Shown here in pieces: positions 1,084-22,077 of a stretch of DNA of 26,332 bases. Both the position numbers and the translations under genes were made by a program. Under the pieces are notes generated by a model. It did not search any database. It saw only the letters and a program-made list of their open reading frames with translations, and was not told where the DNA came from. The stretch spans positions 1-26,332 of the forward strand of contig NZ_JAEDAM010000004.1 of the NCBI RefSeq assembly GCF_018420025.1, written 5' to 3'. This DNA is from Candidatus Vampirococcus lugosii (GTDB lineage Bacteria; Patescibacteriota; Gracilibacteria; Absconditabacterales; Absconditicoccaceae). The first letter of the stretch is position 1. Each line of letters opens with the position of its first letter.

Positions 1084-1088
1084 ATAGT

Positions 1089-1904
1089 ATGAAAATAAAA
1101 GACATTTTATATAAATCAGGTATTTTAATACCATTTTATATAAAAAATAATATAATAAGAGTTGTTTTAAGAATAAAATATTCTCCTTTATTTTTAGAAA
1201 AAATAAAAAATTGAAAATTGTATTCCAAAATTTTATCAACAATAAATGTTTGATGATTTTTTAAAACTGTTGCATATAAAAGACATATAATATGAGATAA
1301 AGAAATTGAAAAAATAATTTGAAAAAATAATAAAAAAATAAAATTTGCAGATGTATGATGTTCAGACGGATCAGCAAGTATAAACTTATATGAACATATG
1401 CAAAATAATTTTGAAAAATATGATTTATTTGATTATTATAATTACTTAAAATATATAAACTATTGACCTATAAAATTATTTTTAAATAAAGATAATTATC
1501 TTGTATATTTTCAGTTTTTATTTATATTGATATACATAAACAAAAAAATAAATTGAAAATTAAATAATCAAAAATATATTAAATTTTGGAATCCTGATTT
1601 AAAAAAACATTGACTGAAAATAAATGAATTTAATATTATAACTGATGTATTAGAAATTGAATATGATATAGTTAAATGTGCTAATTTATTACATTTTAAC
1701 TATTTTAAAAAAGAAGATATATTAAATATTGTAAACAATAAAATGTTACAATATGTTAAAAAATGATGATATCTAGTTTTGATTCATAATAATAGTAAAT
1801 ATCAAGATAATGAGGCTGTGCTTATTCTTAGAAAAAATGAAAAATGAGAATTTGAGATATATAAAAATATAAATAATTATGAAATAATTAGTTTGTTTAA
1901 ATAA
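1089..1904 (+). CDS. Class I SAM-dependent methyltransferase-like protein
   Basis: ATG at 1089 lies 5 nt after the previous stop. The 271-codon frame was checked triplet by triplet and has no TAA/TAG. Motif I-like KFADVGCSDGSASI (about 1344-1382) and a later KKGGYLVLIHN strand are present. Family assignment rests on motifs only. Confidence 0.55.
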
Positions 1905-1912
1905 AAAAGATT

Positions 1913-2587
1913 ATGAAAAAAATTATAATAGAGCTTACTTGATTACAAGGATCTTGAAAAACATCAATAATTAATGCTTTAAATCCCAAATATGAAAAAA
2001 ATGTTTTTTATTGTGAAATTTTTAACAAAAATTATAATAATTTGAAAATTTATAAAAAATTTATAATAAGATTATTTTCTATATTGAAAAATATTAAAAT
2101 AAATTGGAAAATATTTAAATTTAGTCTTTCTTTTGAAAAAAGATTAATAGTTTTTAATAAATTATCATATTCTATATATAAAATTAATTATATAAATAAA
2201 TATTATAAATCAAAAATTATTATAACAGATGAATTATTTTTACATTCTATTTTTAGTTCTTTGTTTTTATATGAAAATAAAATAAATAAAACTAAAATTG
2301 AAAAGTTTTTAAAAAACATTATATTAAATAAAATTCAACCTATATATATTGATGTAAAATATGATGAACAAATAATTAACACAAAAAAAAGAAATATCTT
2401 TAAATTATATGACAATTTACAAGATGAAGAAAAAAAAGAATTATTAGTAAAAAAATGAAATTTATCAGAATTTATAACAAATAAATATTGTGAAATTTAT
2501 AATAGACCATTTTTAAAAGTTCCTTCACTATCTTTAAAAGAAAAAATACACAAAGTTGAGGAATATATTGATTTAATAATTAAATAA
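1913..2587 (+). CDS. P-loop NTPase / kinase-fold protein of unknown function
   Basis: The 224-codon frame contains the standard-code ORF 2042-2458 as an internal fragment. N-terminal Walker A is MKKIIIELTGLQGSGKTSIINAL, with two Gly encoded by TGA. The rest is Lys/Ile/Asn-rich with no other recognisable motif. Confidence 0.5.
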
Positions 2588-2594
2588 ATACACT

Positions 2595-3290
2595 ATGAAA
2601 AAAGTTCTAAATTATATAAGACAAATTATGTTTTATATAGATGCAAAAATGTTAAATTATTTTAAATTTAAAAATTGAAGAATAACAGAATTTGAATATA
2701 AATTAAGAAAAAAGTTTTTAAAAAAAATAAATCAGTTTTGAGTCTATGATTTTTATCAAAGTTATCCTCCTTTGATGATAACTTGAGTTAGACCAACAGC
2801 TTCAAGATTTTGAAATTATTGATTAGAAAATTATCTAAGTAAAGAAAAAGAGGTTTTAGATATTTGAGGGAATATAAGTTTTTTTTCAGCTTATACTTCA
2901 AGATTTGTAAAAAATATTGATGTTGTTGAATATGAGTGAAATTTATGTGATATATGAAATGAATTATTAGGATTTGAAAATATACAAAATGTTAAAATCC
3001 ATAATGTTGATTTTAAAAAATATAAAACAGACAAAAAGTATGATGTAGTTTTTTCATTTGCTATACATATGTGGGTATGACTAAGTATTGAAAAATATTT
3101 AGAACAAATTTATAATTTAATGAAAAATAATTGAATTTTAGTTTTAGAAAGTCATACTTTTTATCAAAACAAATCTGATAGTTTAGATAATCATATTAAA
3201 AAATTTGGAAAATTTGATATAATTAAAAAATGAATTAGTGATGATCAATGATGAAATTATAGAGAGTTTTTTATTTTAAGTAAAAAATAA
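2595..3290 (+). CDS. Class I SAM-dependent methyltransferase
   Basis: The 231-codon frame was checked for stops. Motif I is EVLDIGGNISFF (GG = TGA GGG). Motif II/III-like YDVVFSFAIHMWVG and NGILVLESH are present. Confidence 0.75.
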
Positions 3291-3293
3291 TAT

Positions 3294-4421
3294 ATGTTGA
3301 ACATTTTTTATCCTGTTGAAGTTTTTGTAGTAAATTGAAAAAAATATACAAGAAGTGCTTGGGTTGTAAATTGATATTGAAAATACTTCAATAAAGTAAA
3401 TTTTTATGCCAATATATTTTATGTAAATAATATTGATACAAATAAATTTCAAGAAATTGATTCAAATATTGCATTAATTAATTTTTTTGACAAATGAATA
3501 GATTTCAAATCTTTTATTAAAAATATATGATATTATAAAAATAAAATTAAAAAAATAAATGATGATGAACTATTTTTTATATTATATCCTTATAAGTTTA
3601 TTTGATTTTTATTATGATTAATATTAAGAAATAAAAAACTTATAATTAGAGTTGTTAGTGACCCTATCCAACAATTTACAATTCATTGAAATAAATTTCA
3701 AAGATTTATAAGAAAATTATTAAAACCTTTTGTTTATATTATTTATGAATGAATTTCAAGATTTATATTTCAAGATAACTTAATTTTTTATACTGCAAAT
3801 ATAACAACTAATAAAAAAAATCATATAAATCAAATTGAAATAATTTCTTGCTCAAATTTTAATGAAGATAAAGCACTTATAAACAATAAAATAACAAAAA
3901 AAATTTCTTTTGTATGATGAGAGATAAATAGAAAGTGATTAAATGTATTATTGAAAGCATTAAATCATACAAATCATAATGTAGAATTGAATATTATTTG
4001 AATGGATAAACTACAAAGAAAAGAAAATATAAAATTAGCTCAAAATTTGAATATTAAATTTCATGGTAAAATATACAAAAGAGATGTGTTTTATAAAAAA
4101 CTTGCTCAAAGTGATATACTTGTTATGCCAAGTTTTGGAGAAAAACAATGAAAAACTCAACTTGAAGCTATGAGTGTAGGAGTGGTTCCTATATGTGCTG
4201 ATGGAGGTTGAACTTATAGAACAATAGATAATTATTATAATGGTTTATTATTCAAACAACTTGATTGGAAAGCTTTGGCAAAAAATATTGATATGCTATA
4301 TAATAAACCTGAATTGTATGAGGATTTGAAACAAAATGCACTTGAATATATACAAGAATTATCTTTGGAAAAACAAGTAAAGAAGATGAGTAAAACTATA
4401 AATAATTTTTATAATTTATAA
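3294..4421 (+). CDS. Glycosyltransferase family 4
   Basis: The 375-codon frame was checked for stops. The C-terminal GT4 signature is DILVMPSFGEKQGKTQLEAMSVGVVPICADGGG (E-x7-E). It starts 3 nt after the previous stop. Confidence 0.8.
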
Positions 4422-4430
4422 ATAATAAAA

Positions 4431-5300
4431 ATGAATATAATTAAAAAAAATTTTTCAAGGTTATATATGGCTTATGATACAATTTTTAATACAAAAGTAA
4501 TAGAATGATGAAAATTTAATTGGATAAAATTAAAATCTTTATCATATATGCCTATTATTTTACCTTTTTTGAAAGAAAAAATAAATAACTTTCTATCCAG
4601 AAAAGAAAGAAAAAATTATATAATACAAAATAAAGTTGCCAAGTTTTTTCTATACAATAATGATGATACTTTATGAAAAAGCTCACAATATTTTGAACAT
4701 CACTTACAACATTTTTTGGATGATACAGAAAATAAAAAACTTTTTGTAGATATATGAACAAATATTGGTTTTTATACTCTGTATGCAATAAATAAAAAAT
4801 GATTTCAAAAATCTATTTGTTTTGAGGCAAATCCTGATACCTTCAAAGTATTAAATAAAAATATTGAATTAAATAATTTAGATAAAAATGTGGATTTAAA
4901 AAATTTTTGATTATGAGATAAAGAAGATAAATTAACTTTCTTACAAAACAAAACTCATACTTGATGAAGTAAATTTATATCTTCAGAAGAAAAATCAAAT
5001 TACACTTGAGAAAATTACAATATTATAGATGTAAATATTAAAAAGTTTGATGATATTATTAGTAATAAAAATATTGATATAAATGATATTTGATTTATAA
5101 AAATGGATGTAGAATGATTTGAATACAATGTTTTAATATGAATGAAAGAAACTTTAACAAAATTAAATAAATGAACAAAGTTATTTATAGAAATATGGTG
5201 AAAACATCCAAAACTTGAGGAAACAAAAAAGTTTATACAAGATAATTGATTTGTATTAAAAGAGAATATTTGAAGTAATTATTTATATATTAAAAAATAA
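4431..5300 (+). CDS. FkbM-family methyltransferase
   Basis: The 289-codon frame was checked for stops. Motifs are LFVDIGTNIGFYTLYA (SAM-binding motif I) and IGFIKMDVEGFEYNVLIGM (the KxDVEGxE motif typical of FkbM methyltransferases). Confidence 0.8.
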
Positions 5301-5302
5301 TA

Positions 5303-6265
5303 ATGCCAAAACCAAATTTTTTTATAATATGAGAACCTAAATGCTGAACAACTATACTTCATAATTATCTTTCTAATCATAAAGATATTTTTATGTCTAA
5401 AACGAAGGAGCCTCATTATTTTAATACAGACCATCATCAAGAAGCTATTCAGTTAAATTGAGAAGGTAAAACAAAAAATAGTATTTTTAGATATATTAAT
5501 AAAGAAGATTACCTTTCATTATTTGAACAAGCTAATAAAGAACAAAAAATTATTTGAGAATCAAGTACAAATTATGCTTATAGTAAATTAGCAGCAAAAG
5601 AAATATATAATTTTAATCACAATCCTAAATTATTGTTTTGTATTAGAGAACCTTTAAGCTTTTTACAAAGTTGGCATTCTCAAATATATAAAACTTGAAG
5701 TGAATTTATAGAAAATTTTGAAGAAGCTTTAATTTCTGAAAAAGATAGAAAAAAATGAAAAAAAATTTGAAAAAGAACTAAATATTCTTCATTACTTTAT
5801 TACTCAGAATGGATAAAATTTACAGAACACTTACAAAGATACTTAGATTATTTCCCAAAAGAACAAATAAAAGTAGTCATATATGAAGAATTTAAAAAAG
5901 ATAATCAAAAAACTATAGATGAGATTACAGATTTCTTGTGAGTTGATAGAATGAAAATAGATTATAAACAAGCTAATATAACTCCTAAAACAAAATTAAC
6001 AAAATTTTTAAAATCTAAAAACATATTTAGAAGATTTTTTTGAAAAATTTTACCTTTATCTTTTAGAAAAAAATGGTGAATTTTTGTTGATTATATAGAT
6101 TCAAAAATTGATAAAAAAACAAATACATTAAGTCTTGATGCAAAAACAAAACTTATGAAACAATTTAAACCAGAGGTAGAGAAAATAAATGATTTACTTC
6201 ATAAACATAATCTTATAGATCCAGAGATTGATTTAGTAAAATATTGGTGATATGATAAAGTTTAA
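5303..6265 (+). CDS. Sulfotransferase (PAPS-dependent, Sulfotransfer_1-like)
   Basis: The 320-codon frame was checked for stops. The 5'-PSB loop is PNFFIIGEPKCGTTILHNYL. The 3'-PB-like segment is LLFCIREPLSFLQSWHSQ. Confidence 0.8.
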
Positions 6266-6287
6266 ATATTAATATAAATAATACAAT

Positions 6288-7184
6288 ATGGACAAAGTAA
6301 AAGTTATTTATACAGTTTGATACTGACATAGTGGCTCTAGTTTGATTAATGCTATTTTATGATGAGCTAATGATAGTATAGCAGTTTCAGAATTGATAAA
6401 ACTATGACATAGAATAAGAAAATTATGAAATAGTAAAATATTAAGTAATAGATGAAAATGTCAATGATGCAGAGAAAATATTTATAATTGTAAATTATGG
6501 TCTCAAGTATTAAAAGAAGTTCCAAAAGATAATATATATTTTCAAAATGAAAATTTTTTAGATAATTTAAAAATTAGCTTAAATATATTATTTTGATTTC
6601 CAAAAATAAATTTTAATAATTTAGATGATACTAAACTATATAATTCCATTATAAAAAATTCTAATAAAATATATGATAAAAATATAAATACTGTTGTAGA
6701 TTCTTCTAAAGACCCAAGAAGATTAAAATATTTACAAAAAAATCCTAATATAGACTTATATGTAATTTACCTTACAAGGGATCTAAGATGAGTAAGCAAC
6801 TCTATGGAAAAAAGATGAAAAAACTTTTGAAGAACTTATATTATATGGCATATATGGAATATATTATCTTATATAACATATAAAAAACATAATAAAAATA
6901 AAAAAATAATGATAAGTTATGATAAATTTACTCAAAATCCAGATAAATATTTAAAAAGAATAAAAGATAAATTTAATATTGATTTAAATATGGAAGATTA
7001 TCTTGATAATGCTAATAAACAAGAAATACACTATATATGATGAAATAGTATGCAAAAAAAAGATATTACTGAAATCAAATATGACCAATCTTGGAAAAAA
7101 AGAATGCCAAAATGGAAACAATTTATTCTTAATATGATTTGCTATATTCCAAATAAAATTTGGGTTTATAATAAAAAGTTATAA
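6288..7184 (+). CDS. Sulfotransferase-family protein (second, divergent)
   Basis: The 298-codon frame was checked for stops. The P-loop-like PAPS site is VIYTVGYGHSGSSLINAI. A later VDSSKDPRRLKYL...VIYLTRDLRGVSNS resembles the RDPR..S motif of bacterial sulfotransferases. Confidence 0.65.
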
Positions 7185-7195
7185 CTTACTACCCT

Positions 7196-7244
7196 TTCCT
7201 TATCTTTACAACTTCTTTTTAAAGTTTTAGTAAACTTTTATAGT
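7196..7244. repeat. wzx-tail repeat, copy A (decayed relic)
   Basis: Sequence TTCCTTATCTTTACAACTTCTTTTTAAAGTTTTAGTAAACTTTTATAGT has 3 mismatches over 49 nt to copy C (10114-10162). On the minus strand it reads YKSLLKL*KEVVKIRKG*, so the flippase tail is broken by a stop. Confidence 0.85.
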
Positions 7245-7338
7245 CAACTTTCTATCAAGGACTTAATTAAAAATACTTGATTTTTTATCAATATTGTTTA
7301 TAATGTTTTTAATTTAATTAGATAATTACTTATTATTT

Positions 7339-8594
7339 ATGTTAATAAAAAGATTGATTTTTGATGAAATTCAAAAAGTATTGGATACAAACAAAATAAT
7401 AATATTAAGATGACCAAGACAAGTTGGTAAAACCACTATAATGAAAGACTTACAAACAACTTTCAAAAGTCAGAAAACTGTGTTTTTGGATATGGATGAC
7501 CTTGATATAAAAGAAAAGATAAAGACAGCTTGAAACTTGATAAATTATATAAAATTTGAATACTCATATCAAGAAAATGAAGATATTGTTATATTTTTAG
7601 ATGAATTTCAAAATATAGAAAATGCAGGTGTTTTTCTTAAAAATATATATGATAAATATTCAAATATAAAGTTAATTTGTAGTTGATCCTCAAGTTTGGA
7701 AATAACAAAAAATATTGAACATCTTACAGGTAGAAAAATAGTGTTTGACATTACTCCATTTACTTTCAAGGAATATCTAAAAGCAAGAAAATTTAAAAAT
7801 TATAATATAAAGTTTAATATAAATAACTTTAATGAAATAAATGATTTTTATAATATTTATCAAAATGAGCTAGAAAATTTTTTAAAAGAATATCTAACTA
7901 TATGATGATATCCTGAAATTGTTTTGACTACTTGAAACATTAGAAAAAATATAGCAAAAGATATTACAAAACATATATTCAAAAAGATATAACATCATTT
8001 TTACATATAGAGAATATACAAGCTTTTAATAATTTGCTTAAAATAATTTCTTCTCAAATTTGAAGTTTGTTAAACAAATCAGAACTAAATGCTACTTTAT
8101 GAATATCAATAAATACTTTAAAAAAATATCTTAATATACTTGAATGAACTTTCATAATAAACATATTAAATCCTTTTTATAAAAATGTAAGGAAAGAGCT
8201 TAGCAAAATGCCAAAAATTTATTTTAATGATATGTGAATTAGAAATTATTTACTTTACTGAAACCTTGAAGAACTTCCAACTGCTAATATATGAGAATTG
8301 GTAGAGAATTTTGTTTATAATGAATTAAAATTAAAAGATAATAATTGAATAAATTTTTATAGAACTATATCCAAAGCAGAAATAGATTTTATATTTCAAA
8401 AATCATTTGATAAAATTATACCTATGGAAGTAAAGTATAGAAATAAAGTAAATGTCCCTGAAATTATGCAAAATTTTAGTAAAAACTATTCAAGTAAAAT
8501 AGATAAAAAAATAATTATTACAAAGAATAAATTAGAAATAAAAGAAGATGTTTATCTTATACCAGCTTGTTTGGTAAGTTTTATAAACCTTTAG
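7339..8594 (+). pseudogene. AAA+ ATPase with DUF4143 / PD-(D/E)xK-like C-terminal domain, disrupted by a 1-nt frameshift
   Basis: Frame 1 (7339-7992) encodes MLIKRLIFDEIQKVLDTNKIIILRGPRQVGKTT (Walker A), FLDEFQ (Walker B) and TIGGYPEIV, then stops at 7990-7992. Frame 0 continues from about 7971 with YIQKDITSFLHIENIQAFNNLLKIISSQIGSLLN...MPKIYFNDMGIRN...AEIDFIFQ...PMEVKY to TAG 8592-8594. The total of 1256 nt is not a multiple of 3. One extra A in the run at 7968-7971 would restore a 418-aa protein. Confidence 0.8.
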
Positions 8595-8597
8595 CTT

Positions 8598-8641
8598 TTC
8601 CTTATCTTAACAACTTCTTTTTTAAGTTTTAGTAAAGTTTT
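8598..8641. repeat. wzx-tail repeat, copy B (relic)
   Basis: Sequence TTCCTTATCTTAACAACTTCTTTTTTAAGTTTTAGTAAAGTTTT has 2 mismatches over 44 nt to copy C. The minus strand reads KTLLKLKKEVVKIRKS* with no gene body upstream. Confidence 0.85.
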
Positions 8642-8757
8642 TCTTGATTTTATTTTTATTATGTATATAATTTCTCCCATATATGGTAATATAAACCTAC
8701 CTAAAATTCCCAGAATTGGTAAAGACAATATATTTTTTATAATATTATAATATACAA

Positions 8758-10110
8758 ATGGAACTTAAAAGAAATATATATCAAGAATTGACAAACTGGA
8801 GTAAAAAGAAAAATAAAAAGCCTCTTATCTTGAAAGGTGCAAGACAAGTATGAAAATCTTTTGTTATAGAACATTTTGCAAAACATAATAATATAAACAT
8901 ACATAAGATAAACTTTCAATCTCAAAAAGATGCTTTTTATATATTTGATTGAAATCAAGATGCCAATACTATATTAACCAAGATTGAGTATTTTTTAGAT
9001 ACAAGTATAGATATAGACAATGATTTATTATTTTTTGATGAGATACAGGAATATCCTAAAGCTATAAATTCACTTAAATTTTTACAAGAAGAAAAACCAG
9101 AACTTAAAGTTATAGCAGCTTGAAGTTATCTTTGAATTATGAAAAATCAAGAATCTTTCCCGGTATGAAAAGTTGAATATCTTTCTATGTTTCCACTTAC
9201 TTTTGAAGAATTTTTACAAGCAATCGATAAAAAACTTTATGATTTTTATAATACTATAGATGTGGATAATATGAAAGTTATAGATACTTTTTTTCATCAA
9301 AAATTGCTTGATAAGTTTTATTTGTATTTGGCTATATGATGAATGCCTGAAGTTGTTTTGTCTTTTATAGAACATGTAAAAGATAATTCTTTATATGAAA
9401 CTTTAAATATAGTTAGAAAAAAACAAGAACAGCTTCTTGAATCATATAAATCAGATTTTTCTAAGCATGCATGAATAGTAAATTCAAGTCATATACTAAA
9501 TGTTTTTGAAGCAATTTCTATACAATTATCAAAAGCAGATTATGAAGAAACCAACAAGTTTAAATTTACTTGAGTTATACCAAATCAAAAAGGTTATGAT
9601 AGGATAGTATGACCACTTACTTGGTTATCAAAAGCAAGACTTGCTATACAAAGTTTTATCATATCAGATACTAAACAACCTTTAAAGGCAGAAGTTCAAA
9701 AAAATAAGTTTAAAGTATTTATGCATGATATATGACTTTTAAATGCTGAATTATCTACTCCTATACATTCATTATTAAATATAAAAAGTTCTTTATGATC
9801 ATATAAATGATATATTATAGAAAATTTTATAGCTTGTGAATTATTTTCAATTACTGATAAACATCTATTTACCTGGACTAGATGAAAATCAGAGATAGAG
9901 TTTATATTTGAGAAAAAAACACATCTAATACCCATAGAAGCTAAATCATCAGATAAATCAAGGAAAGCTAAAAGTTTACTCTCTTTTATAAAAAGATATA
10001 ATCCTACATATGCATATAAGTTTACAGCACAAAACTATTGAAATAAAAATTGATTTGAAACTATTCCTTTATATTTAATTTGAAAAATATTTAAAGAAAG
10101 AAAGTATTAA
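8758..10110 (+). CDS. AAA+ ATPase with DUF4143 / PD-(D/E)xK-like C-terminal domain (intact paralogue)
   Basis: The frame has 450 codons. Motifs are PLILKGARQVGKSF (Walker A, Gly=TGA), LLFFDEIQ (Walker B), LAIGGMPEVV, FMHDIGLLN and SEIEFIFEK...IPIEAKS (nuclease-like E-x-E/D...E-x-K). It matches the 7339-8594 gene only at family motifs. Confidence 0.85.
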
Positions 10111-11642
10111 TTTTTCCTTATCTTAACAACTTCTTTTTTTAGTTTTAGTAAACTTTTATAGTTTATGATCAAAAATCATAATCAAAATATAGCAAAAGCT
10201 ATCATCAAGTACAATAAATTTTCATACCTTGCACTATTTGTATATTCAAAAAAAATTCATTTCAAACTATATAGTATAAGTCATACTATCAAAAAATAAA
10301 CTATATTTCAAAATAAAAATCACCTATAAAGTATGATAGGGTTTTTCTTATATATGTAGATAAATGAAAATAAAAACATCATAAACCAAGCTATGATACT
10401 TGATATAACTGCTCCATATACTCATATAAAAGGTATCAAAGCTCCATTTATAAGGATATTTACAAGTGCAGCAAAAGCTATTATCTTTACTCTATTTTTT
10501 GGTTTTCCATAAGCATTTATCACTACAAAATTGAACTGAAATAAAACTTTTAGAACCAAAAATAAAGCTATAAACTGTAAAAGTATACCAGAAAGTAAAA
10601 AATGATCACCAAATAATACTATAGATACTATATCTCAAAATAATAAGAAAAATACTCAAAGTGCAAAAAATATAATTCAAAAATAATTATAATATATGTT
10701 TTGTAATATCTTAATTTTAAAATTTTCTTTTTTTTCTATAAGCTCTGTGATGATAGGCAAGAAAAGTTGCATGATAGGTCATATAAACATTCATTGTATC
10801 ATAAACAAACTTTTAAAATTTGTATAATATCCTGCACTTTCTGTTCAAGCAAGGAACAAAACCATCTGTAAATCTATCTGTCACATAACAACTCATGCTT
10901 GACCTCAAAGTAATGCCCATAATCCATAACTATGAAAACTTTTTAAAGTATCTTTATTGTATGATATATCTATCTTTTGAAGTTTAACCTTTTTTAAAGC
11001 TTTTATATATAAAAATATACAAGAAAGTACAAAAGCTATAACTCATCAAAGTATCCAAGTAAGAAAATAATTTTCTATACTACCATTTTCAAAAAGAAAA
11101 AAACTTAATGTAAAAGCAAATATAAGCCACATTCTTATAGCATTTGAAAATCTTTGATAGAATATTTCTTGAAAAGAATTTAATATATTATTTACAAGAC
11201 CATATAAATTTAAAAGTATAAAATAAGCTATAATATAGTATATAAAAGTTTTACTAGCATAAGAATCAAGATATATGTTTGATATCACATCTGCTCAAAA
11301 GTATATAAGTAAAGATATGATAATAGAAAAAAATATTTGAAAAATGATAGTATATCATATCAAAAATCAAACTTTTTTATCTTCACCTTTAGCAAGAAAC
11401 TTAGGTATAAAATAATTTAAAGCTCACTTATTTCAAAGATCTCAATATATTACAAGTATACTTACAAGTCAAAGAAGTGAATATATAATTCAAATATCTG
11501 AAACTCATAGATCATTTGAAAGTATAGTTCTTATAAGATATCAAGTAGGAGCTATGATAAAAGCAAAAAAGTATAACCAAAATCATTTAGTTAATAATTT
11601 CTTTGCAAGTGTTTCTTCCTTGAAAAGTTGATTATCTTTCAT
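10107..11642 (-). CDS. wzx: MOP-superfamily oligosaccharide flippase (Wzx / polysaccharide biosynthesis protein)
   Basis: The 511-codon minus-strand frame was checked triplet by triplet for TAA/TAG. It contains track ORF 11046-11288 in frame. The protein is hydrophobic with many helix-length segments. The N-terminus MKDNQLFKEETLAKKLLTKGFWLYFFAFIIAPTGYLIRTILSNDLGVSDIG is typical of Wzx/PST proteins. It sits beside the glycan locus. Its stop codon (complement of 10107-10109) overlaps the ATPase stop at 10108-10110. Confidence 0.75.
10114..10162. repeat. wzx-tail repeat, copy C (functional 3' end of the flippase gene)
   Basis: Sequence is TTCCTTATCTTAACAACTTCTTTTTTTAGTTTTAGTAAACTTTTATAGT. On the minus strand it encodes the last residues NYKSLLKLKKEVVKIRKN* of the 10107-11642 ORF. 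Confidence 0.85.
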
Positions 11643-11675
11643 TTATATTTGATTTTTTTAGGTAAATAATAAGTT
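11642..11675. repeat. 34-bp direct repeat, copy 1 (immediately upstream of the wzx start codon)
   Basis: TTTATATTTGATTTTTTTAGGTAAATAATAAGTT is identical to 12953-12986. Position 11642 is the A of the wzx ATG on the minus strand. Confidence 0.9.
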
Positions 11676-11725: not shown

Positions 11726-12337
11726 TTATTTTTTACAAAAGTTTTTTTGGTCTTGAGTTAAAACTTCTCATAGTCAATCAAGTATCTTATAGTTTTTAGG
11801 TGATTTTTCTAATTTTTCTCTTATTTGTATGAGTGCTTTTTTGTATGTTTTTCAAGTTCTTTCTTCTATAACTTTCTCATTTACATCAAAAAGATTTTTA
11901 AAGAAAAAGTATATATCATATATATCTCTATTTGCATTTCTTTCAATAAAAGAAACAAGTTTATTTGCAAATATAGTTGATTTATCTTGTACTTTTATAT
12001 CTGTTCCATAAAAATTTACTATTTCATATTTATTATTTTTCCAAATTTTCCTGTTTATATCTATTTTTATATTTACATCATATTCTCAGTAAGAAAGCAA
12101 TATATTATGACCTTTTTTAACTTTTCAGTATTTTTTTAATATATCTACCATCTCCTCATCTACTTGCTCAAAGTCTTCCAAAAGATCAAAATCTAAATCT
12201 GTAGAAAATCTATCTAATCAATATAAAAAATAACAAGCAGTTCATCATTTAAAAGCCAAGTATTTACCAAGTTTTGATGAAAAAATATCCTTTAATATTA
12301 AAAACATAATTTGTCTATGTTTATCAGTATTAAGCAT
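11726..12337 (-). CDS. abiEii: AbiEii/AbiGii-family nucleotidyltransferase toxin (type IV TA, DUF1814)
   Basis: The 203-codon frame was checked for stops. The N-terminus MLNTDKHRQIMFLILKDIFSSKLGKYLAFKGGTACYFLYGLDRFSTDLDFDL carries the KGGTA...R.S.DLDF nucleotidyltransferase signature of AbiEii. It overlaps the upstream gene by 8 nt (ATGCTTAA). Confidence 0.8.
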
Positions 12338-12890
12338 TGTTTAGTATTTTTTTAATTTCTAAAATAACTCTTTTATTGTATATCAAACTTATCTTTTCTA
12401 ATTTATCTTTATCTATATCTTCTAAATTATCAAAATAATAGTTTGCTGATAAATATAACCTATCACAGATAGCTCTTTCCTTGCTTGCTATCATATAGTT
12501 TCATTTGTTTATAATTCATATAGGATTTAAAAGAATATCTTTTTTTAGGTTTAAGTATCTAAAATTAACTCCTAAAAACTGTTTTGTAATAGTATTATCA
12601 CTTGCAAGAAATATAGTGTCTTGATAATCTTGAAATATAATTCATTCTTTTTTAAGAACTGTTTCAAAGCTAATATATGAATTTTTTTTAAGTTTTGTTG
12701 AAAGTTCAAGTTTGTTATATTTTTTTAATGTATATATTCATTTAGTTATATAGTCAAAAATACCGTTTTTTACTCATCTTGAAAAAAAACTTTTTATAGT
12801 TTCTTTATTTTCTATTCATACAATATTTTTTATATCATTGTATGTAAAAACTGTCTTTCAAGATCAGATTATTTTATCTATATTTTTCAT
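12330..12890 (-). CDS. abiEi: AbiEi-like antitoxin / transcriptional regulator
   Basis: The 186-codon frame was checked for stops and is translationally coupled to abiEii. The N-terminal wHTH-like segment is FTYNDIKNIVGIENKETIKSFFSRGVKNGIFDYITKGIY. The C-terminal SKERAICDRLY is as in AbiEi_4-type antitoxins. Position and size fit the family. Motif evidence is moderate. Confidence 0.65.
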
Positions 12891-12903
12891 ATATCATCTC
12901 ATA

Positions 12904-12927
12904 AGGTTTAAATCTAAACCTATTATA
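12904..12927 (-). promoter_or_regulatory. Candidate abiE promoter -10 box with overlapping inverted-repeat operator
   Basis: The minus strand reads TATAAT (complement of 12922-12927), followed directly by AGGTTTA-GATT-TAAACCT. This is a perfect 7-bp inverted repeat (plus 12904-12910 / 12915-12921), 14-31 nt upstream of the abiEi ATG. AbiEi proteins are known to autoregulate through inverted repeats. The AT-rich background makes chance matches likely. Confidence 0.35.
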
Positions 12928-12952
12928 ATGAAATTATGTAAAAATCAATATT

Positions 12953-12986
12953 TTTATATTTGATTTTTTTAGGTAAATAATAAGTT
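12953..12986. repeat. 34-bp direct repeat, copy 2 (upstream of the abiE operon)
   Basis: Identical to 11642-11675. It lies 63 nt upstream of the abiEi start. Confidence 0.9.
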
Positions 12987-13127: not shown

Positions 13128-15206
13128 TTACAAAATTCATGTATACCAGTGAATATCTTTTATTATTTGTTTTTCAAATGCTCATGGTGCATAATATACA
13201 TATATATGATCAAAAGATATTTTACTTGACATAAGATTTAATAAAAATTCAAATCATCAAACTACTATTTTTTTATTTTTTATTTGAGAATAGTAAATAT
13301 TTTTACCAACTCATCAAGTAATATTTTCAAATAATAATTCATAATTAAGATTATAGTTATTATTTAATAAATATTCAAAAAGTTCTTTAGATTTATTTTT
13401 ATTGACACAAAGTATAAATATATTATTATGTTTTGATATATTATCAATTATTTTATTTTTATCATTTTGTTTAGATAATTTAATATTACTATAAGATTTA
13501 TCACCTCATATTGAATAAAATCATTCTTTAGTATTATTTGAAAAAAATACAACTTCATTTTTATCAAAAAAATCCATAAATTCTTGATAATTAATTAAAT
13601 TATTTGTTCTATAAAATGTAAAATAAAATTTATTTTCATCATACATCATTTTTTTTATCAAACAAATATTATTGAATATATCGTCCATATCATCAAAAAA
13701 ATCTACAATACAATCTCTATCTTCATTTTCTAATTTTTCTGAAATAACAAGTAAATCTTCTCTCAGAGAATTAAAAAGTTTATTTGATAAATAAAAATCA
13801 ATATTTCATTTGATATAATCAATTTCTACTATATCTTTTGAAATTCAAATAAATTGTTTTGTTATTTCTTTGAAAAGAATACCAGTAAATATAATAAATT
13901 TAGTATAAAATTTATTTAATTCATATATATCAAGTCATTTAATTTCATATTTATATATAAAAAATTCAAGTTTATAAATAACAAAATATAGATCAAATGG
14001 TTTATTTAAATATTTTGATAAACTATTGTACCAAGTATCCCGATCAAAAAAATAAATTTTGTAATCAGATATATTTTTATTTTTTATAAATTCAAATAAA
14101 TTATAATGATTTGCTAGAACTATATCAGATAATTTTTTATCAATTCACTTTTGCAAAAAATTAGAAATTTTGAAATCATTTGCCAAAGATAAATCCAAAA
14201 ATCAATGTCATTTATCATATTGACTAAAATACTTTATTAAAAAATTAATTTCAAAAAAATTAAAATTATCTTTTCATAAAAATAAATTTGTATTTTCTTT
14301 ATCAAAAATAGAATTATTTCCCAAATATCAAATATTTTTTACTCATAAATTTGATAATAAAGTTTTTGCAATTTTAAGTTTTGATGGATTTTGAAAACAA
14401 ATAATTCATTTTTTATTTGTTGTTGCTATATCATACAAAACTTTTTTGAAAGATTCATCTCATACATAAAATTTATCTCAATCTTTTGATTTAGAAATTG
14501 TATTATCAGGTCATTTATTTATAATTTTGGAATTAACAGCTACTTCTTTTTTTAATCAAGGTAAAAAATAATTTGATTTATCTACATAATAATCATCTTT
14601 TATATCAAATATTTGATTATAAATACTTTCTGATCTTAAAATACAATTTTTTAAAATAGGAAATTTATTTGACAAATTTCAAAATCTTTCAACAAAAAAT
14701 TTAAAAATATTATAAGATGCCAAGCTATCTGTCAAAGCATCATGATAGTCTCAATCAATAATTATATTATATTCTTTTTTTAAAATTTCACTTATAATTT
14801 CCAAAGAATAACTCGGTAAAAAATGAAATATACTATGCGACAAATGAAAAGTATCCAAAGTTTTAACAAAAGATAAATCCATATATTTTGATAAAATATT
14901 TATATCAAACATAATATTATGTCAAATAATAACAGTATTTTTATCAAAATATTTTGAAATTTGCTTCAGAATATCTTGTATATACGGTGCATCTTGCAAA
15001 TCATTAACATTAATATTAGTTACGAATTTTACAATATTTTTTAAATCTAAACTGTTTGATTGTGGTTTTATATAAGATTTATATTTTTCTAATATATTAA
15101 AATTATTATCAAATTTTACTATTCATATTTGAATGGGTTCATCTTTTTTGATATCTAATCAAGTTGTTTCTAGATCTAGAGATATATAATTTAAATTTTT
15201 AAGCAT
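13128..15206 (-). CDS. dinG: DnaQ-type DEDDh 3'-5' exonuclease domain fused to a degenerate DinG-like helicase region
   Basis: The 692-codon frame was checked triplet by triplet. Exo I is ISLDLETTGL, Exo II is IIGHNIMFDINIL and Exo III is YHDALTDSLA, all in the first ~170 aa. The long C-terminal region has DinG-like end segments (VVGGFEFLLNL...YVYYAPGAF). I could not find a GxGKS/T Walker A. Confidence 0.7.
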
Positions 15207-15359: not shown

Positions 15360-17390
15360 TTAAACATTTTCAATTATTTCTTCTATTATTTTTGGTTCTA
15401 TTTGTTCATGAATATATCTAGAAATTGGTCTAGCTCAATATTCAGGTGCATAAATTTCATCAATAATAGATTGTATATTTTTTACATTATATTTTGGTAC
15501 TGATATTCATTTTTTTTCTTTCCATAATCTTGAAAATTCTTTATATTCTTTTTGAAAAATATCAATCATTATTTCTTTGGAAAGAGGTTTAAATACTATA
15601 GTATTATCTAATCTATTTAATAATTCAGCAGATATTTCAGATTTCAACTTTTCCATAACTCTTTCTTTCACTATATCAAAATCTTTATCAAAAGAATCTT
15701 TTGAAGATTTATTATTAGTTCAAAATCAAATTTTTACTACTTTTTTGGCAAATTCTTCCGATCAAATATTTGAAGTAAGAATTATTATAGTATTTTTGAA
15801 GTCAATTAATCTTCATTTATTATCTTTTAGTGTTCATTCATCAAGAATTTGCAACAAAATATTTAAAACATCAGGAGATGCTTTTTCTATTTCATCAAAT
15901 AATATAATACTATAAGGATTTCTTCTTACAGATTCTGTAAGAGTTCATCATTCATCATAACCAACATAACCAGGAGCAGATCAAATAAGTTTACTAGAAC
16001 TATTTCTATCCATATATTCCGACATATCAACTCTAATAAGTGACTTTTCGCTTTCAAAAAAATGTTTTGCTAACAATTTAGTAATATAAGTTTTACCAAC
16101 ACCTGAAGGTCATAAAAATAGAAATGATGCAATAGGTTTTTGTCTATCTATCACAGATATACGATTTCTTTTTATATAGTTTACTAAAGATTGAACTGCT
16201 TCATCTTGTCCAACTAAATCTTTTTTTATCAAAGTATCCAAATCTTTAAGTTTATTTAATTCTGATTCATTAAGTTTAGATTTAGGAATTCATGTTTTCA
16301 TAGACAAAACTTCACTTATATTTATACTATCAACATTTGTTCTCAAATGTTTTGGTAATGAATTTTGAGATCTAATATTTTTCATTTCTTGTTTCAAATT
16401 TTCTTCTTCTTCTTTAAGTTCCGCCGCTTTAAAATAATCTTGATTTAAAATTGATGCTTGTATTTTTTTTTGCAAAATTTCAAGTTTTTTTTCTACTTGT
16501 TTGTATTCATCATTTTTTTCTAATTTTTCTCATAAAGTAGATTGTCTTGCACATGCTTCATCAATTAAGTCTATTGCTTTATCAGGCAATTGTTTATTTA
16601 ATATATATCTTGAACTTAATTCAACAGAAGTATGTATTGCATTATCTGCAATATTTACACCATGAAATGATTCAAATTTTTCTCTAATACCAAATAAAAT
16701 TTTTTTAGTATCTTCATTACTAGGTTCATCAACATTTACTTCTTGAAATCTCCTTTTTAATGCAGGATCTTTTTCAATATGTTTTTGATATTCGTCATAT
16801 GTTGTTGCACCTATTAATTGTAATTTACCTCTAGATAAAAAAGGTTTAAGTATGTTTGCGGCATCAGCTCATCATTCTGTATTTCAAGCTCATATTATAG
16901 TATGTAATTCATCAATAAATAAAATAATATTATTAGTAGGATCAGTTGCTTCTTGTATAATAGTTTTTAATCTTGATTCAAATTCTCATCTATATTTGGT
17001 ACCAGCAACCAGTCCACCAACATCAAGCATAAAAATTCTTTTATTTTTTAATTTCTCAGGGACATCATTATTTTCTATTTTTTGAGCTAATCATTCAACT
17101 ATAGCCGTTTTACCAACTCAAGCTTCTCATATAAGTAAAGGATTATTTTTTGTTTTTCTCAAAAGAGTATATATAGTTTGCTGAATTTCTTCATATCTAC
17201 CTATCACTGGATCCAAATATCAATTTCTTGCTTCAAAATTTAAATTTGTTCAAAAATGTTCAATAGTAAGTTTTTTTTCTTCTACTTGTGAGGAAGTGTC
17301 TATTTTACTATCATCTCAATTATTTGTTCAATCTATAAGATCTTGATCCGATTCATTTTTTATTGACTTATAATTATTGTTTATATACAT
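15360..17390 (-). CDS. clpC: ClpC-like class I Clp/Hsp100 AAA+ ATPase lacking the Clp_N domain
   Basis: The 676-codon frame was checked for stops and contains track ORF 16290-16475 in frame. D1 motifs are [23 protein letters not shown] and ILFIDELH. The UVR-like linker is [20 protein letters not shown]2 motifs are [21 protein letters not shown] and GARPISR. The ClpP-docking loop is KIGFG. Only about 45 residues precede D1. Confidence 0.9.
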
Positions 17391-17790: not shown

Positions 17791-17978
17791 TATTAAAAAA
17801 ATAATTAATAATCTCATTATTTTATATACAAATAAATTAATTTTATCAAGTTTACAAATTTTTGTAATACTGACAAATATTATTAAATAAACAATTTTTG
17901 CATTTAGGATTTTTTGCAAGACATTGATATCTACCAAAAAATATAAACAATTGATGAGCTTTATTTTTTCTGTTATTA
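17791..17978. repeat. 188-bp perfect direct repeat, copy 1 (orphan nth 3' end plus 61 bp downstream)
   Basis: Identical base for base to 21890-22077 by manual comparison of the full strings. On the minus strand it encodes NNRKNKAHQLFIFFGRYQCLAKNPKCKNCLFNNICQYYKNL* but is preceded by an in-frame stop (complement of 17984-17986). It is therefore a gene fragment, not a gene. Confidence 0.95.
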
Positions 17979-18165: not shown

Positions 18166-20472
18166 TTATTCAAATAATTTTGGAGATTGTCAAATATGAT
18201 ATTTTACAATAAAATTTTCTGCATAACCAGATGTTGTATGTCATTTATTTCAAGTTCTAAATTTGTTTAAATCATACATTAATGATTTATGATAATTACC
18301 AGTTTTTTTTCATCAAGGTAATTTATAAGTACCAGCTTCTCATATAGATCATCAAATTGTATTCCTAGTATATAACCTTCATTCAAGTATTAATTGTTTA
18401 TCTAATCAAGTTGTTCTTTCATATGAGTCAGTATAATTACTAAATCAAATAGCATCATCCCATATACTTATGAAACCTCAATCTCAATATATATATGCAT
18501 TTATTTTTTTTACATCATTTTTTATAAAGATATTTCATAAATGATCGTCATCATAATGATCTCTAATTAAAACTATTCATTTCATATCAACAATATCACT
18601 ATCAATTATTAAATTTCAATTTTTAATTACTATTGTTGACACATCTGATAAATCATAAATATTTGATATATCGTCTTCATATACTATATCATCATTATTA
18701 TTAATATCTAAATATAGTATTCAATTATTTTTTTGTTCATGAACCATTCATCTTATAGACTTTAATACATTACTTTTAAATTTATTTCTAAATTCAGATG
18801 TAGAAATACTAGAAAAATTTCTTTGCTGATTTGTTATTTTTTGATTTCAAATAGCTTGTGAATATCAAATTATCCTAATTCAAGAATAACTTGAATCATC
18901 TAGTGTTACTTTCCTATCATCTGGTTCAATTCAATCAGATAAATAATATCTAACTGTATTTCAATCTAAATCATATAAAACATATGGATCTGATTCTATA
19001 CTTACATTATTTATAAATTGATCTGTACCAGTATAATTTAAAATAAATTGTAATTCTGATTTTCAATCACTTAACATGTTATTAAATCAAGTTGTATACT
19101 GTATATAATATCAATTACTTGATGAAGTTAATGTATCTAAATTTTCAGTTTTTAAACCACTTTCTCAACTCAATCCAGATAAAGATTCTTTTTTTGGAGT
19201 TAATATTAATTTTTGTTGATTTCATATTATAAATCACATTGGATCCACATTCAATTCTCAAATATATGGTTTCAAAAAACTATAACGAACTGAAGAGACT
19301 GTCATCTTCGTTCATCATAAATTAAATCATATATCTCAACTATTTGATTTAAACGGTGATCTTGATTTAATTCAAGTCATAGGCACTGAAAAAGATTTAG
19401 CAGTAGAAGTAGGTATTCAAGAAGATGAAACAGTACCAAAATTTAAAGCAGTTCAAGAATTATTTATTCTATCAGAATTTTCTCAAGATTCATCCTCTAT
19501 ATTTGTAATAGATCTTGTTCAAGGTGTTCGTTTAATTCATTTATTTTGTTTAGTAGAAGCTGATATATTAAGACTAACTTCACATGAAGAAGAATTATCA
19601 GCATATATATTATTACATGTAGAAGATGGTGTATTTAAAGCATTTATAGTTATAGTAGCTGGAGGTGTAGTAGGCTTAGGTGCATCAGGAGGACACGAAG
19701 AAGTATTACATGGTCAACAACTTGTACTACAATTTCAGTCATCATCACAAGATTCTTTACAAGTTTGACTTCAACAAGATGATCTATTAGCAGTAAAAGA
19801 AGGAGCTTGAATACACTTTATTTTTCAATCATTAGACCATGATCAAGTAACTTCACAAATAGACCAATGTGTACTCCATGATGCTATATAACTACTACAT
19901 GCAGATGTAGTTGTTGTTACTGTTAAATCTGGATCTGGATCTGGGTCTCAATCTGGATCTGGATCTGGGTCTCAATCTGGATCTGGATCTGGGTCTCAAT
20001 CTGGATCTGGATCTGGGTTTCAATCTGGATCTGGATCTGGGTCTCAATCTGGAGCTGGATCTGGGTCTCAATCTGGAGCTGGATCTGGGTCTCAATCTGG
20101 ATCTGGATCTGGGTCTCAATCTGGAGCTGGGTCTGGAGCTGGTTCTGGAGCTGGGTCTGGAGCTGGTTCTGGATCTACCACTCTAGCACTAGCTCAATTA
20201 TGACAAGCTACGGAATTTTCATCTCTATCAACCTTAGCATGATCTAGTCACCCCTCTTCAATTGCATCAAACAGTTCATCTACAGTTTCAAAAGTTGTAG
20301 CATGATTAGACCATTCATCAAGTTGTTGCTGATTACCTCATCAAACAATAACTTTTGTTCAATCTCCAATAGTAACTTCTTTTTCAAGATTTCCTAATAC
20401 TAAAGGGTTTCATAAAATAGAACTTAAAGATATAAAAACAATTATAAACATTTTATATAATATTTTTTTCAT
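18166..20472 (-). CDS. Secreted protein with an acidic Pro/Asp tandem-repeat linker, a Cys-rich module and a large C-terminal domain of unknown function
   Basis: All triplets of the 768-codon frame were checked and show no TAA/TAG. The signal-peptide-like N-terminus is MKKILYKMFIIVFISLSSILG. It contains (DPDPDPDG)x8 plus PAPD/PAPE units. The Cys-rich stretch reads SACSSYIASWSTHWSICEV...CGSQTCKESCDDDGNCSTSCGPCNTSSCPP. About 480 aa then follow that I could not assign to a family. Confidence 0.8.
19927..20175. repeat. Coding tandem repeat: 8 x 24 bp followed by degenerate 12-bp units
   Basis: The plus-strand unit ATCTGGATCTGGATCTGGGTCTCA repeats at 19927, 19951, 19975, 19999, 20023, 20047, 20071 and 20095, with a few A/G/C variants. 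AGCTGGGTCTGG/AGCTGGTTCTGG units then run to 20175. In the gene frame each 24-bp unit encodes DPDPDPDG with the Gly as TGA. Confidence 0.95.
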
Positions 20473-20481
20473 TTTTTAATT

Positions 20482-21699
20482 TTAATTATTAAATTTTAAA
20501 TCTGCTACATAATCATCAACTCATTTAACATTTCAAAACAATCAATAATTATTTCTTTTTAATTCATTATCAACAAAGATATCCCAATAATAATATTTAT
20601 TCATATTATTAAATAAATAATTCATATCCGTTTCTTTATCTTTTTTAAGTACTTCAAATACTGTAAAAAACATAATAGTGCTTCTAATTTTATTTTTTCT
20701 TAACTCTCTTTGATTATCCATAAGTATAATATCATTATCTACAACACTTAATCATTTATTCATATAATTAACAGCTAATTCAAAGTCTCAAAAATTATAT
20801 TCAACAAGTCATTTATAATAATATGCTTCATATCAATTAGGATTTAAATCAATACTTTTATCTAAATAATCATTTATTTCTTCATATAAAGAAGAATCAT
20901 TTTTCATATATAATCATCTAGCAACTCATAAATATCACATAGGATAATTTTTATTATAATTTATTGATTCTTTAGCATATTCAATAGATTTTTCTATATC
21001 TGGATTTAATTGATTAACATTTAATACTATACTACTCAAAGAATAATAAATTTCAGATTTTAAACTATTACTATTAGTATCTAAAGATTTTTTAAAATAT
21101 TTAATAGATTCTTTATATTTTCAATTCCTAGCTAAATATCTTCATATATTTCAAGATGCCTCATGATTATTATCTATATCATAAGATTTATGATAATATT
21201 TATATCATAATTTTCTATCTCACATAATATCATATACATGTCATATCTGATTCAAAAGTATAGCTGCTTCATTTTCGGAAAGATTATCCAAATTTAATGC
21301 TTTATTATAAAAATTAATTGCTAATTCATATTCTTTTATAATTTCATTTGCAAATCATTTATAATACAAAACATTAAAACTATCTTCCTTATCTTCCAAA
21401 AGATCTAATACTATAGATGAATATTTATTCTCTTCATACTTATAGACTCATTCTTGCAAATAAGAATGTAAAAGTTGATCAAATTCTGCACTATCTAAAT
21501 TATCAACTCATTTTTCAGTATAATAAGTAATTACTGTTTCATAATTTCATAACTCAATCATTTTACTTATATCTACATTATTTTCTTTATTATTAAACTC
21601 TTCATCATTAAACTCATCTTTGTTAAAAAATAAAAAATAAAATACTAGTAAAAATGAAAAAGAAAAAATTAGTAAAAATAAATATTTTTTTTGATACAT
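20482..21699 (-). CDS. Tetratricopeptide-repeat protein with N-terminal membrane anchor
   Basis: The 405-codon frame was translated row by row. The N-terminal hydrophobic segment is MYQKKYLFLLIFSFSFLLVFYFLFF. Repeated TPR-like units follow, such as YYKGFANEIIKEYELAINFYNKAL, GHVYDIMGDRKLGYKYYHKSY, RYLARNGKYKESIKYFKKSL, YLGVARGLYMKNDSSLYEEINDYLDKSIDLNP and AYYYKGLVEYNFGDFELAVNYMNKGL. The stop lies 9 nt before the next gene's start. Confidence 0.75.
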
Positions 21700-21889: not shown

Positions 21890-22077
21890 TATTAAAAAAA
21901 TAATTAATAATCTCATTATTTTATATACAAATAAATTAATTTTATCAAGTTTACAAATTTTTGTAATACTGACAAATATTATTAAATAAACAATTTTTGC
22001 ATTTAGGATTTTTTGCAAGACATTGATATCTACCAAAAAATATAAACAATTGATGAGCTTTATTTTTTCTGTTATTA
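21890..22077. repeat. 188-bp perfect direct repeat, copy 2 (true 3' end of nth plus 61 bp downstream)
   Basis: Identical to 17791-17978 and contiguous with the rest of the nth reading frame. Confidence 0.95.

Follow-up and report, generated by a model that had tools for sequence, protein, structure and literature searches.

Direct copies of a flippase gene end flank accessory-gene cassettes in Candidatus Vampirococcus lugosii

Introduction

Genomic islands, integrative and conjugative elements (ICEs) and cis-mobilisable elements (CIMEs) insert at the 3' end of protein-coding or tRNA genes; ICESt1, ICESt3 and CIMEs reportedly accrete in this way at the 3' end of fda in Streptococcus thermophilus. 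The locus described here lies in a stretch of 26,332 nucleotides from the predatory bacterium Candidatus Vampirococcus lugosii (NZ_JAEDAM010000004.1, positions 1 to 26,332, in the following 'the window'), where the end of a gene for a Wzx/MurJ-like flippase occurs three times around two ATPase genes. It resembles these elements in that direct repeats of the target end flank each unit, the insert rebuilds the gene end and units stack beside an anchor gene, and in that some of them, too, lack an integrase of their own. It differs from them in that no integrase is found nearby, that the units measure 1.3-1.7 kb and hold one or two genes, and that the scars vary in length and position, occurring also at the 5' end and at the downstream promoter.

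Sedentary chromosomal integron arrays are likewise composed of small cassettes that frequently carry toxin-antitoxin or defence genes and are spaced by a host-specific repeat, and homologous cargo is found in different hosts with host-specific repeats; in contrast, the scars at the flippase come without IntI or an attC-type fold, the cassettes are self-promoted, and the repeat copies the coding end of a resident gene. The orphan toxin-immunity modules downstream of rhs and cdiA arise by 3'-end displacement, each module keeping a short piece of the main gene. There, as here, newcomers occupy the main gene's 3' end, older ends being displaced outward; the modules at the flippase, however, are genes in their own right, for the most part on the opposite strand, rather than alternative C-termini, and the flippase changes only in its last codon and stop. 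In Campbell-type insertion-duplication in naturally transformable bacteria, the basis of insertion-duplication mutagenesis, direct copies of a shared fragment also flank the insert, the fragment sets the length of the repeat, and no dedicated recombinase is involved. It differs in that it is known from the laboratory, as a result obtained with engineered circles, and we know of no description of its natural, recurrent use to build arrays of accessory genes at one conserved gene. For the PADLOC family PDC-S01 (AAA_14-DUF4143, COG1373-type), a candidate defence gene, the likeness concerns the cargo only.

At the flippase locus small, self-promoted accessory genes have evidently been added one by one to the 3' end of a conserved gene, two PDC-S01-type ATPases in the window and, to judge from related genomes, AbiE, Fic, RhuM, MazF and Schlafen-like genes elsewhere. 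Each addition leaves the insert flanked on either side by about 50 nt of the gene end; the copy attached to the gene body keeps the flippase intact, and the displaced copy persists as a decaying relic. We tentatively interpret the three copies as insertion-duplication scars left by general recombination at the ends of conserved genes, the best-placed of several readings, to which we nevertheless give somewhat less than an even chance.

Results

Three copies of the flippase tail enclose two ATPase genes

The features of the locus, in the order of their coordinates, are:
7189..7244, minus strand: tail copy A, a relic; block 7195-7244 with private codon GGG and stop TAG (7189-7194)
7277..7304, plus strand: promoter-like site of cassette 1, TTGATT-N16-TATAAT
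7339..8594, plus strand: ATPase1, AAA_14 and DUF4143, PADLOC PDC-S01; frameshifted here
8591..8640, minus strand: tail copy B, a relic; block 8597-8640 with private codon AGC and stop TAA
8644..8671, plus strand: promoter-like site of cassette 2, TTGATT-N16-TATAAT, 3 nt past copy B
8758..10110, plus strand: ATPase2, AAA_14 and DUF4143, PADLOC PDC-S01; intact, 450 aa
10107..10162, minus strand: tail copy C, the functional flippase 3' end; block 10113-10162 with codon AAT and stop TAA
10107..11642, minus strand: flippase of the Wzx/MurJ-like multidrug/oligosaccharidyl-lipid/polysaccharide (MOP) type, the anchor gene; 511 aa

The repeated block is about 50 nt long and occurs exactly three times in the contig (7195-7244, 8597-8640 and 10113-10162). 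A preliminary description of the stretch had placed the copies at 7196, 8598 and 10114, with two or three substitutions and no indels; at these positions direct copies indeed fit a 39-nt consensus with at most two mismatches, shuffled sequences giving no match (n = 100), and alignment gives 3/50 differences between A and C (47/50 identical) and 2/45 between B and C, free of indels, for an identity of 93-96%. Copy B is shorter than C at the proximal edge. Only copy C continues into the flippase, as had been stated: read on the minus strand (...NYKSLLKLKKEVVKIRKN), it is the true end of the 511-aa protein. Copy B (...KTLLKLKKEVVKIRKS) has no gene body, its similarity to the flippase stopping at the block with none upstream; its 57-codon open frame was tried as a longer flippase remnant and gave noise in a profile search (E 0.16-0.5). 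Copy A contains the internal stop reported for it (DYKSLLKL*KEVVKIRKG*, asterisks marking stops). Private changes number one or two per copy; the only one in the functional copy C is synonymous, and the relics have a nonsense and a missense change. The order of age that had been read from a graded decay, A over B over C, is too weakly founded on three versus two substitutions and one nonsense change.

The last codon and stop are unlike in each copy (GGG TAG in A, AGC TAA in B, AAT TAA in C), and therefore lie outside the repeat, as part of the flanks; the proposal that the repeat is the flippase tail thus holds for the coding end, less its last codon and stop. The final residue and the stop of the flippase are supplied by the end of the adjoining cassette, hence the overlaps with the ATPase stops that the preliminary description had pointed out: TTAG at 8591-8594, where the stop TAA of copy B meets that of ATPase1, and TTAA at 10107-10110, where the stop TAA of copy C meets that of ATPase2. 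The stop of relic A (7189-7191) lies 4 nt beyond that of gene 6288-7184 (7182-7184), and thus in the place given for it; the neighbour, which had been called the last sulfotransferase gene, is, however, only weakly sulfotransferase-like (Sulfotransfer_3, E 0.018, below the Pfam cut-off). An independent Logan assembly shows the same order, A-ATPase1-B-ATPase2-C-flippase. Exact scans for the tail TTCCTTATCTTNACAACTTCTTTTT gave no match in the GTDB representative genomes and the JGI metagenomes, not even the window itself, these collections evidently being without this genome.

The block is a coding end

The flippase matches the Pfam profile Polysacc_synt (E 5.7e-11, above the cut-off) and, below the cut-off, MurJ (E 4e-4); a profile match in a multi-span membrane protein of about 500 aa places it among the Wzx/MurJ-type MOP flippases. 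It has 39 homologues of 500-520 aa. About 20 homologues, at an overall identity of only 30-40%, end in the motif N[YWF]K..(L/I)..KKE(I/V)..(I/L)(R/K)K. Because the homologues conserve the tail as protein, it is genuine flippase sequence, and the block is the coding 3' end of the gene and not a foreign element. The preliminary description had left room for homologues without this tail; they have it. It had also asked whether the block is conserved as RNA or as coding sequence, and here the signs are of coding alone: folding of the three copies on both strands gives energies equal to those of shuffled sequence (z -0.64 to +0.82), there is no terminator-like site at any of the three, and the block has no match in Rfam.

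The ATPase cassettes

Both ATPases match the PDC-S01 models over their full length (ATPase1 E 1.8e-81, ATPase2 E 4.3e-123) and both contain AAA_14 and DUF4143 by Pfam (E 7.7e-31 and 3.1e-40 in ATPase1). Their Walker A motifs are GPRQVGKTT and GARQVGKS, and C-terminal ExD/E...E.K motifs can be read from the sequence. They are only 27% identical, in keeping with their earlier description as divergent. PDC-S01 is a candidate defence family, by genomic association; a sequence search found no solved structure related to ATPase2. In this assembly only, ATPase1 is interrupted by a frameshift of one base near 7968; it is intact, with 418 aa, in the Logan contig L083. Compared with the Logan assembly, 7960-7975 shows a one-base deletion and one substitution (GATATTACA-AAACA versus GATATTATAGAAACA), which split ATPase1 into two frames; this break is likely to be an assembly error or a minority variant.

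The cassettes open with a TTGATT-N16-TAnAAT site directly beyond the relic, and the site of cassette 2 is conserved at the promoter of an ATPase2 homologue in contig L086. The genes between the copies behave as separately acquired cassettes, each with a putative promoter of its own. The sequence CTTGATTTT was considered as a cassette-specific recombination core and rejected, since other promoters of the window contain it too (18069, 18100) and it matches a generic -35 box. A 21-mer, CTTGATTTTTTATCAATATTG, is identical at 7276-7296 of the window and at 13964-13984 (minus strand) of the Absconditicoccus praedator locus, L001. It contains the palindrome TTGAT-N5-ATCAA and lies at the promoters of ATPase1 in V. 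lugosii and of the ATPase2 orthologue in A. praedator, although the identity between the proteins behind it is only about 27%; it could represent an operator common to both. Its six matches in metagenomes are all unrelated and due to chance.

The same architecture in Absconditicoccus praedator

The flippase of A. praedator is 35% identical to that of the window and has a tail of its own (...IFVKELKRFRKSK*), which is present four times, as the functional end and at about 10791, 12492 and 13985. These copies bracket three cassettes, all convergent to the flippase: a DUF4325 and HATPase_c protein, an AbiEii with its partner, and a 450-aa ATPase. That the same architecture is built here from A. 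praedator's own tail speaks in favour of recurrent insertion at the end of the flippase gene, and not for tandem duplication followed by divergence.

The 450-aa ATPase is the counterpart of ATPase2 (71.8% amino acid identity). At the nucleotide level the two are about 75% identical from ATG to stop, where the similarity ends, the flanks being each host's own tail; the orthologue, too, has a TTAA overlap of stops, with relic 3. A further homologue in contig L086 (78.7% amino acid identity) lies downstream of an epimerase gene and has its promoter in common with ATPase2; the contig terminates at the ATPase stop. ATPase2 orthologues thus occupy the boundary between polysaccharide cluster and flippase in three related genomes (72-79% amino acid identity), so that ATPase2 may be an old resident of the locus and not the latest arrival. 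Between the window and A. praedator, identity is 72% for ATPase2, 61% for UvrD and 35% for the flippase, with synonymous sites near saturation.

Among 81 flippase loci only these two have repeats of their own tail; duplication of the tail is therefore not universal. The convergence of a DUF4143 ATPase with wzx, for which the preliminary description had recommended a search as a possible donor context, is likewise rare, being found only in the window and A. praedator among 83 loci. Of the idea that two units of ATPase plus wzx tail were inserted successively at one spot, the successive insertion is supported; that a donor brought the units in this composition cannot be shown, because only the ATPase2 ORF (open reading frame) is common to the genera and the tails are genome-specific.

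Scars at both flippase ends and at another gene

The phenomenon is wider than first described, extending to other types of cassette, to both ends of the flippase gene and to another gene, nth. In the window these are represented by two further repeat pairs:
11642..11675, minus strand: flippase 5' leader copy 1, a 34-nt direct repeat immediately upstream of the ATG
11726..12902, minus strand: AbiE cassette between the leader copies (AbiEii 11726-12337, AbiEi-like 12330-12902)
12953..12986, minus strand: flippase 5' leader copy 2, 100% identical to copy 1, upstream of the AbiE cassette
17791..17978, minus strand: relic of the nth 3' end, 127 nt coding and 61 nt downstream, 100% identical to 21890-22077
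18166..21699, minus strand: block of two genes between the nth-end copies, for a 768-aa Pro/Asp-repeat surface protein and a 405-aa TPR protein
21890..22077, minus strand: functional 3' end of nth (HhH-GPD, EndoIII) and 61 nt downstream, the partner in the 188-nt repeat

The AbiE cassette (AbiEii, Pfam E 3.5e-19) has its own promoter-like site, TTGATT-N15-TATAAT at about 12922-12948 (minus strand), directly beyond the upstream leader copy. The nth-end pair brackets 3.9 kb; being perfect and long, it needs confirmation at the level of reads. Within the surface-protein gene, 19878-20231 consists of about 20 tandem 12-nt units encoding a Pro/Asp-rich repeat (PDPDPDGD).

The comparison set comprised 80 further flippase loci from GTDB genomes, with scars in Absconditabacteria and Gracilibacteria among them. 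Duplicates of the flippase gene's head enclose Fic in L001 and L013; RhuM-Fic in L028, with the head fused in frame (MNGELLADQ); RhuM, MazF and a second flippase with a glycosyltransferase in L056, which has four heads, each starting MIDQHKTLSEK; and a short insert in L077. In L016 and L019 there are three occurrences of the promoter just past the flippase stop, placed around a Schlafen/AlbA_2 and a MazF gene. Related genomes offer empty sites, L017 for L016 and L019, and L011 for L013. The repeats range from 32 to about 440 nt, the latter being the duplicated segment of L013, and their position varies between untranslated region or leader, first codons, last codons and the promoter downstream of the stop. 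They touch flippase ends in 9/166 cases and other gene ends in 31/2032 (odds ratio 3.7, p 0.002).

Several observations at these loci stand by themselves. In L056, two flippase paralogues (7269-8774 and 9992-11506) lie in tandem, at 57% amino acid identity overall and 93-96% identity over the first ~200 nt; such a mosaic would fit a recombination breakpoint within the gene head. At least seven genomes (L002, L009, L023, L037, L041, L050 and the window) have an AbiEi/AbiEii pair immediately upstream of the flippase and co-oriented with it, which may reflect either conserved synteny or recurrent insertion; repeats around these pairs are detectable only in the window, the six other genomes showing none. 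In L013 a 165-nt direct repeat (93%; 15698-15862 and 17220-17384) encloses one more AbiEii/AbiEi pair, located 4-6 kb downstream of the flippase, so that this type of scar is not restricted to flippase ends. The same genome, otherwise A+T-rich, has a small intergenic G+C-rich palindrome, TTCCCCTGTAAGGGGAAG-like, at 4680-4709, 8185-8214 and about 8260-8300, possibly a terminator or a unit akin to repetitive extragenic palindromes (REPs). A 2.1-kb difference between L040 and L046 past the flippase stop was rejected as a further case: it comprises Gmd and a fucose synthase, an ordinary difference in a sugar pathway, without repeats.

Recombinases and site-specific elements

By Pfam, there is no recombinase among the window genes, nor is there one in the precomputed Pfam listing for the 8 kb that flank the A. 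praedator locus on each side; in 1527 ORFs of 83 loci, at about 20 kb per genome, a crude search by motif gave no tyrosine or serine recombinase signature. The text of the V. lugosii genome paper contains neither 'integrase' nor 'transposase', and reports that the organism encodes ComEC, ComEA and type IV pili (PMC8080830). An integron, defined by IntI and attI, was found neither in the window genes nor in the A. praedator flanks nor by the motif search of the 83 loci, and an attC-type folded site is lacking, all three copies folding as their shuffled controls. Nor is there a single att core of fixed position, the repeats lying, with their 32 to ~440 nt, at differing positions between genomes, and three unrelated repeat sequences (tail, leader and nth end) occur in one 26-kb contig. 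Shared or inverted termini, as of a transposon or insertion sequence, were not seen on inspection at 7245.../...8596, 8641.../...10112 and 11676.../...12952, and the duplication is of variable length, not fixed as for these elements. The block has no inverted arms of the kind found in the 28-nt Xer/dif site (11-nt arms, 6-nt spacer), no formal dif model having been run.

Genetic code and surroundings

The window has a G+C content of 21%. Translated with table 11, it yields four ORFs of at least 80 aa in its whole 26 kb, and with code 25 (TGA = Gly) a dense gene map throughout; the TGA codons coincide with conserved glycines, for example in the Walker A motif GPRQVGKTT, and the flippase product under code 25 is a 100% match to an NCBI protein of Candidatus Vampirococcus lugosii. 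The window contains no tRNA and no match to an Rfam family. The gene order begins with a polysaccharide-modification cluster:
43-7184, plus strand: glycosyl-, methyl- and sulfotransferase genes
5303-6265: neighbour of the last gene, with a clear Sulfotransfer_1 match (Pfam)
6288..7184, plus strand: last gene of the cluster, a code-25 ORF, sulfotransferase-like but unconfirmed

The polysaccharide clusters of both V. lugosii (1913-2587) and A. praedator (L001, 14027-14746) encode a small P-loop protein, of 224 and 239 aa, with the motif IIE(L/F)TG.(Q/S)GSGKT and only weak kinase- or GTPase-like matches. The A. praedator gene adjoins the outermost tail relic.

Discussion

How could the end of a resident gene come to flank its neighbours? 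In the reading which we tentatively prefer, the agent would be general (RecA-type) recombination and not a specialised site-specific enzyme. The competence machinery would most plausibly have imported the DNA from related cells; this DNA would bear a short stretch identical to the gene end and would enter as a circle or in an 'ends-in' configuration; integration in Campbell fashion would then duplicate the shared stretch. A cassette flanked by repeats could loop out and re-enter any genome with the same gene end. Only events after which the resident gene and its new neighbour are both expressed would survive selection, from which scars at gene heads, tails and promoters are to be expected, and toxin-antitoxin cargo would stabilise the arrays against deletion. 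Repeats of varied length and position would follow from events driven by homology, unlike an att core or a fixed target duplication; it is this variation, together with the three unrelated repeats, the lack of hairpins and shared termini, the lack of a recombinase and the presence of DNA-uptake genes, that favours general recombination. Copies B and C each have a single private difference on the side that a Campbell crossover predicts to be donor-derived, which is consistent but not decisive.

A number of points weigh against this reading. Neither a circular intermediate nor a recombinant allele nor a donor strain has been observed. At each site, the first event cannot have been purely homologous, as a donor that combines cassette and gene end needs an illegitimate join, and homology-driven transfer cannot carry a cassette between genera with different tails; yet ATPase2 orthologues have the same TTAA junction of stops in both genera, which requires either vertical inheritance of the junction or a mechanism independent of homology. 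The tails are 93-96% identical, whereas ATPase2 has long diverged (72% of amino acids), so that either recent events or gene conversion must be assumed. The relic directly abuts the -35 box in 4/5 convergent cassettes, for which general recombination has no explanation except selection. Finally, the search for recombinases spanned only about 20 kb per genome.

Its strongest competitor, less likely in our estimation but deserving serious consideration, is a duplication made de novo from the target by an illegitimate process at the moment of insertion, the incoming DNA bringing no flippase sequence of its own: widely staggered breaks that are filled in, foreign DNA captured where the copies of a tandem duplication join, or template switching, with homologous recombination spreading the product only afterwards. 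Some such first event is logically required at each site, and it would readily give flanking copies that are always the host's own gene end, as is the case even for the ATPase2 cassette common to the genera. Two repeat pairs of the window are moreover 100% identical (34 nt and 188 nt), and the wide range of lengths is that of unprogrammed breaks. Against this, no known bacterial pathway is documented to do so routinely, copies B and C differ from one another, B being shorter at the proximal edge, and the heads in L028 and L056 are fused in frame at or near the natural starts of cassette ORFs, which would need strong selection.

Two further mechanisms appear improbable, and to about the same degree. 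The cassettes could be integrase-less, cis-mobilisable units, akin to CIMEs or integron cassettes, served by a recombinase in trans with the tail block as its att site. Arrays of units of one or two genes, rich in toxin-antitoxin and defence functions and spaced by a species-specific repeat, would look like this; new units seem to join beside a fixed anchor gene, and insertion restores the 3' end of the gene, as it does with islands directed to gene ends. An att site should, however, be one sequence at one place, and the 26-kb contig has three unrelated repeats whose position and length (32 to ~440 nt) differ between genomes; the block has neither hairpin nor inverted arms (z about 0), no recombinase is found within ~10 kb in 83 loci, and the genome paper (PMC8080830) mentions neither an integrase nor a transposase. 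Alternatively, Absconditabacteria and Gracilibacteria might possess a dedicated, homology-independent and as yet undescribed capture of cassettes, defence or toxin-antitoxin genes with their promoters, at the ends of conserved genes, in which the adjoining 30-400 nt of the target are copied. The flippase would then be an integron-like landing platform without IntI or attC, and the same ATPase2 ORF and TTAA junction in two genera, each with its own tail, would be explained.

That the block is a non-coding element into which the flippase frame merely reads, such as a bidirectional terminator, a REP-like repeat or an RNA motif, is largely refuted and very improbable: it does lie at the 3' ends of convergent genes, but it folds as shuffled sequence does (z -0.6 to +0.8), has no terminator-like site or Rfam match and only three copies in the contig, and encodes a peptide conserved in distant flippase homologues. 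Just as little can be said for one unit of ATPase and tail duplicated in tandem, with later divergence of the ATPases, or for repeats that are artefacts of assembly, both refuted for the tail copies in spite of the similar size of the units (spacing 1402 and 1516 nt) and the derivation of the genome from few amplified cells: the ATPases are 27% identical against 93-96% for the tails, the copies have substitutions and recur in the order A-ATPase1-B-ATPase2-C in an independent assembly, and diverged copies exist in the complete genome of A. praedator.

Bacteria belonging to the Candidate Phyla Radiation (CPR) have genomes that are very small, contain few recognisable mobile elements and use an altered code, and the acquisition and turnover of their defence and toxin-antitoxin genes are poorly understood. 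The scars provide a readable record of this process, giving the gene end that was used, the insert and, roughly, the state of the gene end at the time. Gene callers and assemblers will mis-handle such loci, through relic ORFs, in-frame fusions of heads and contig breaks at repeats. In several genera, insertions have docked repeatedly at a conserved flippase gene, with no integrase visible. If this is not driven by homology, an unknown mechanism of integration is implied; if it is, cassettes flanked by repeats would in effect be mobile by transformation alone, a simple route to defence islands that could extend beyond the CPR.

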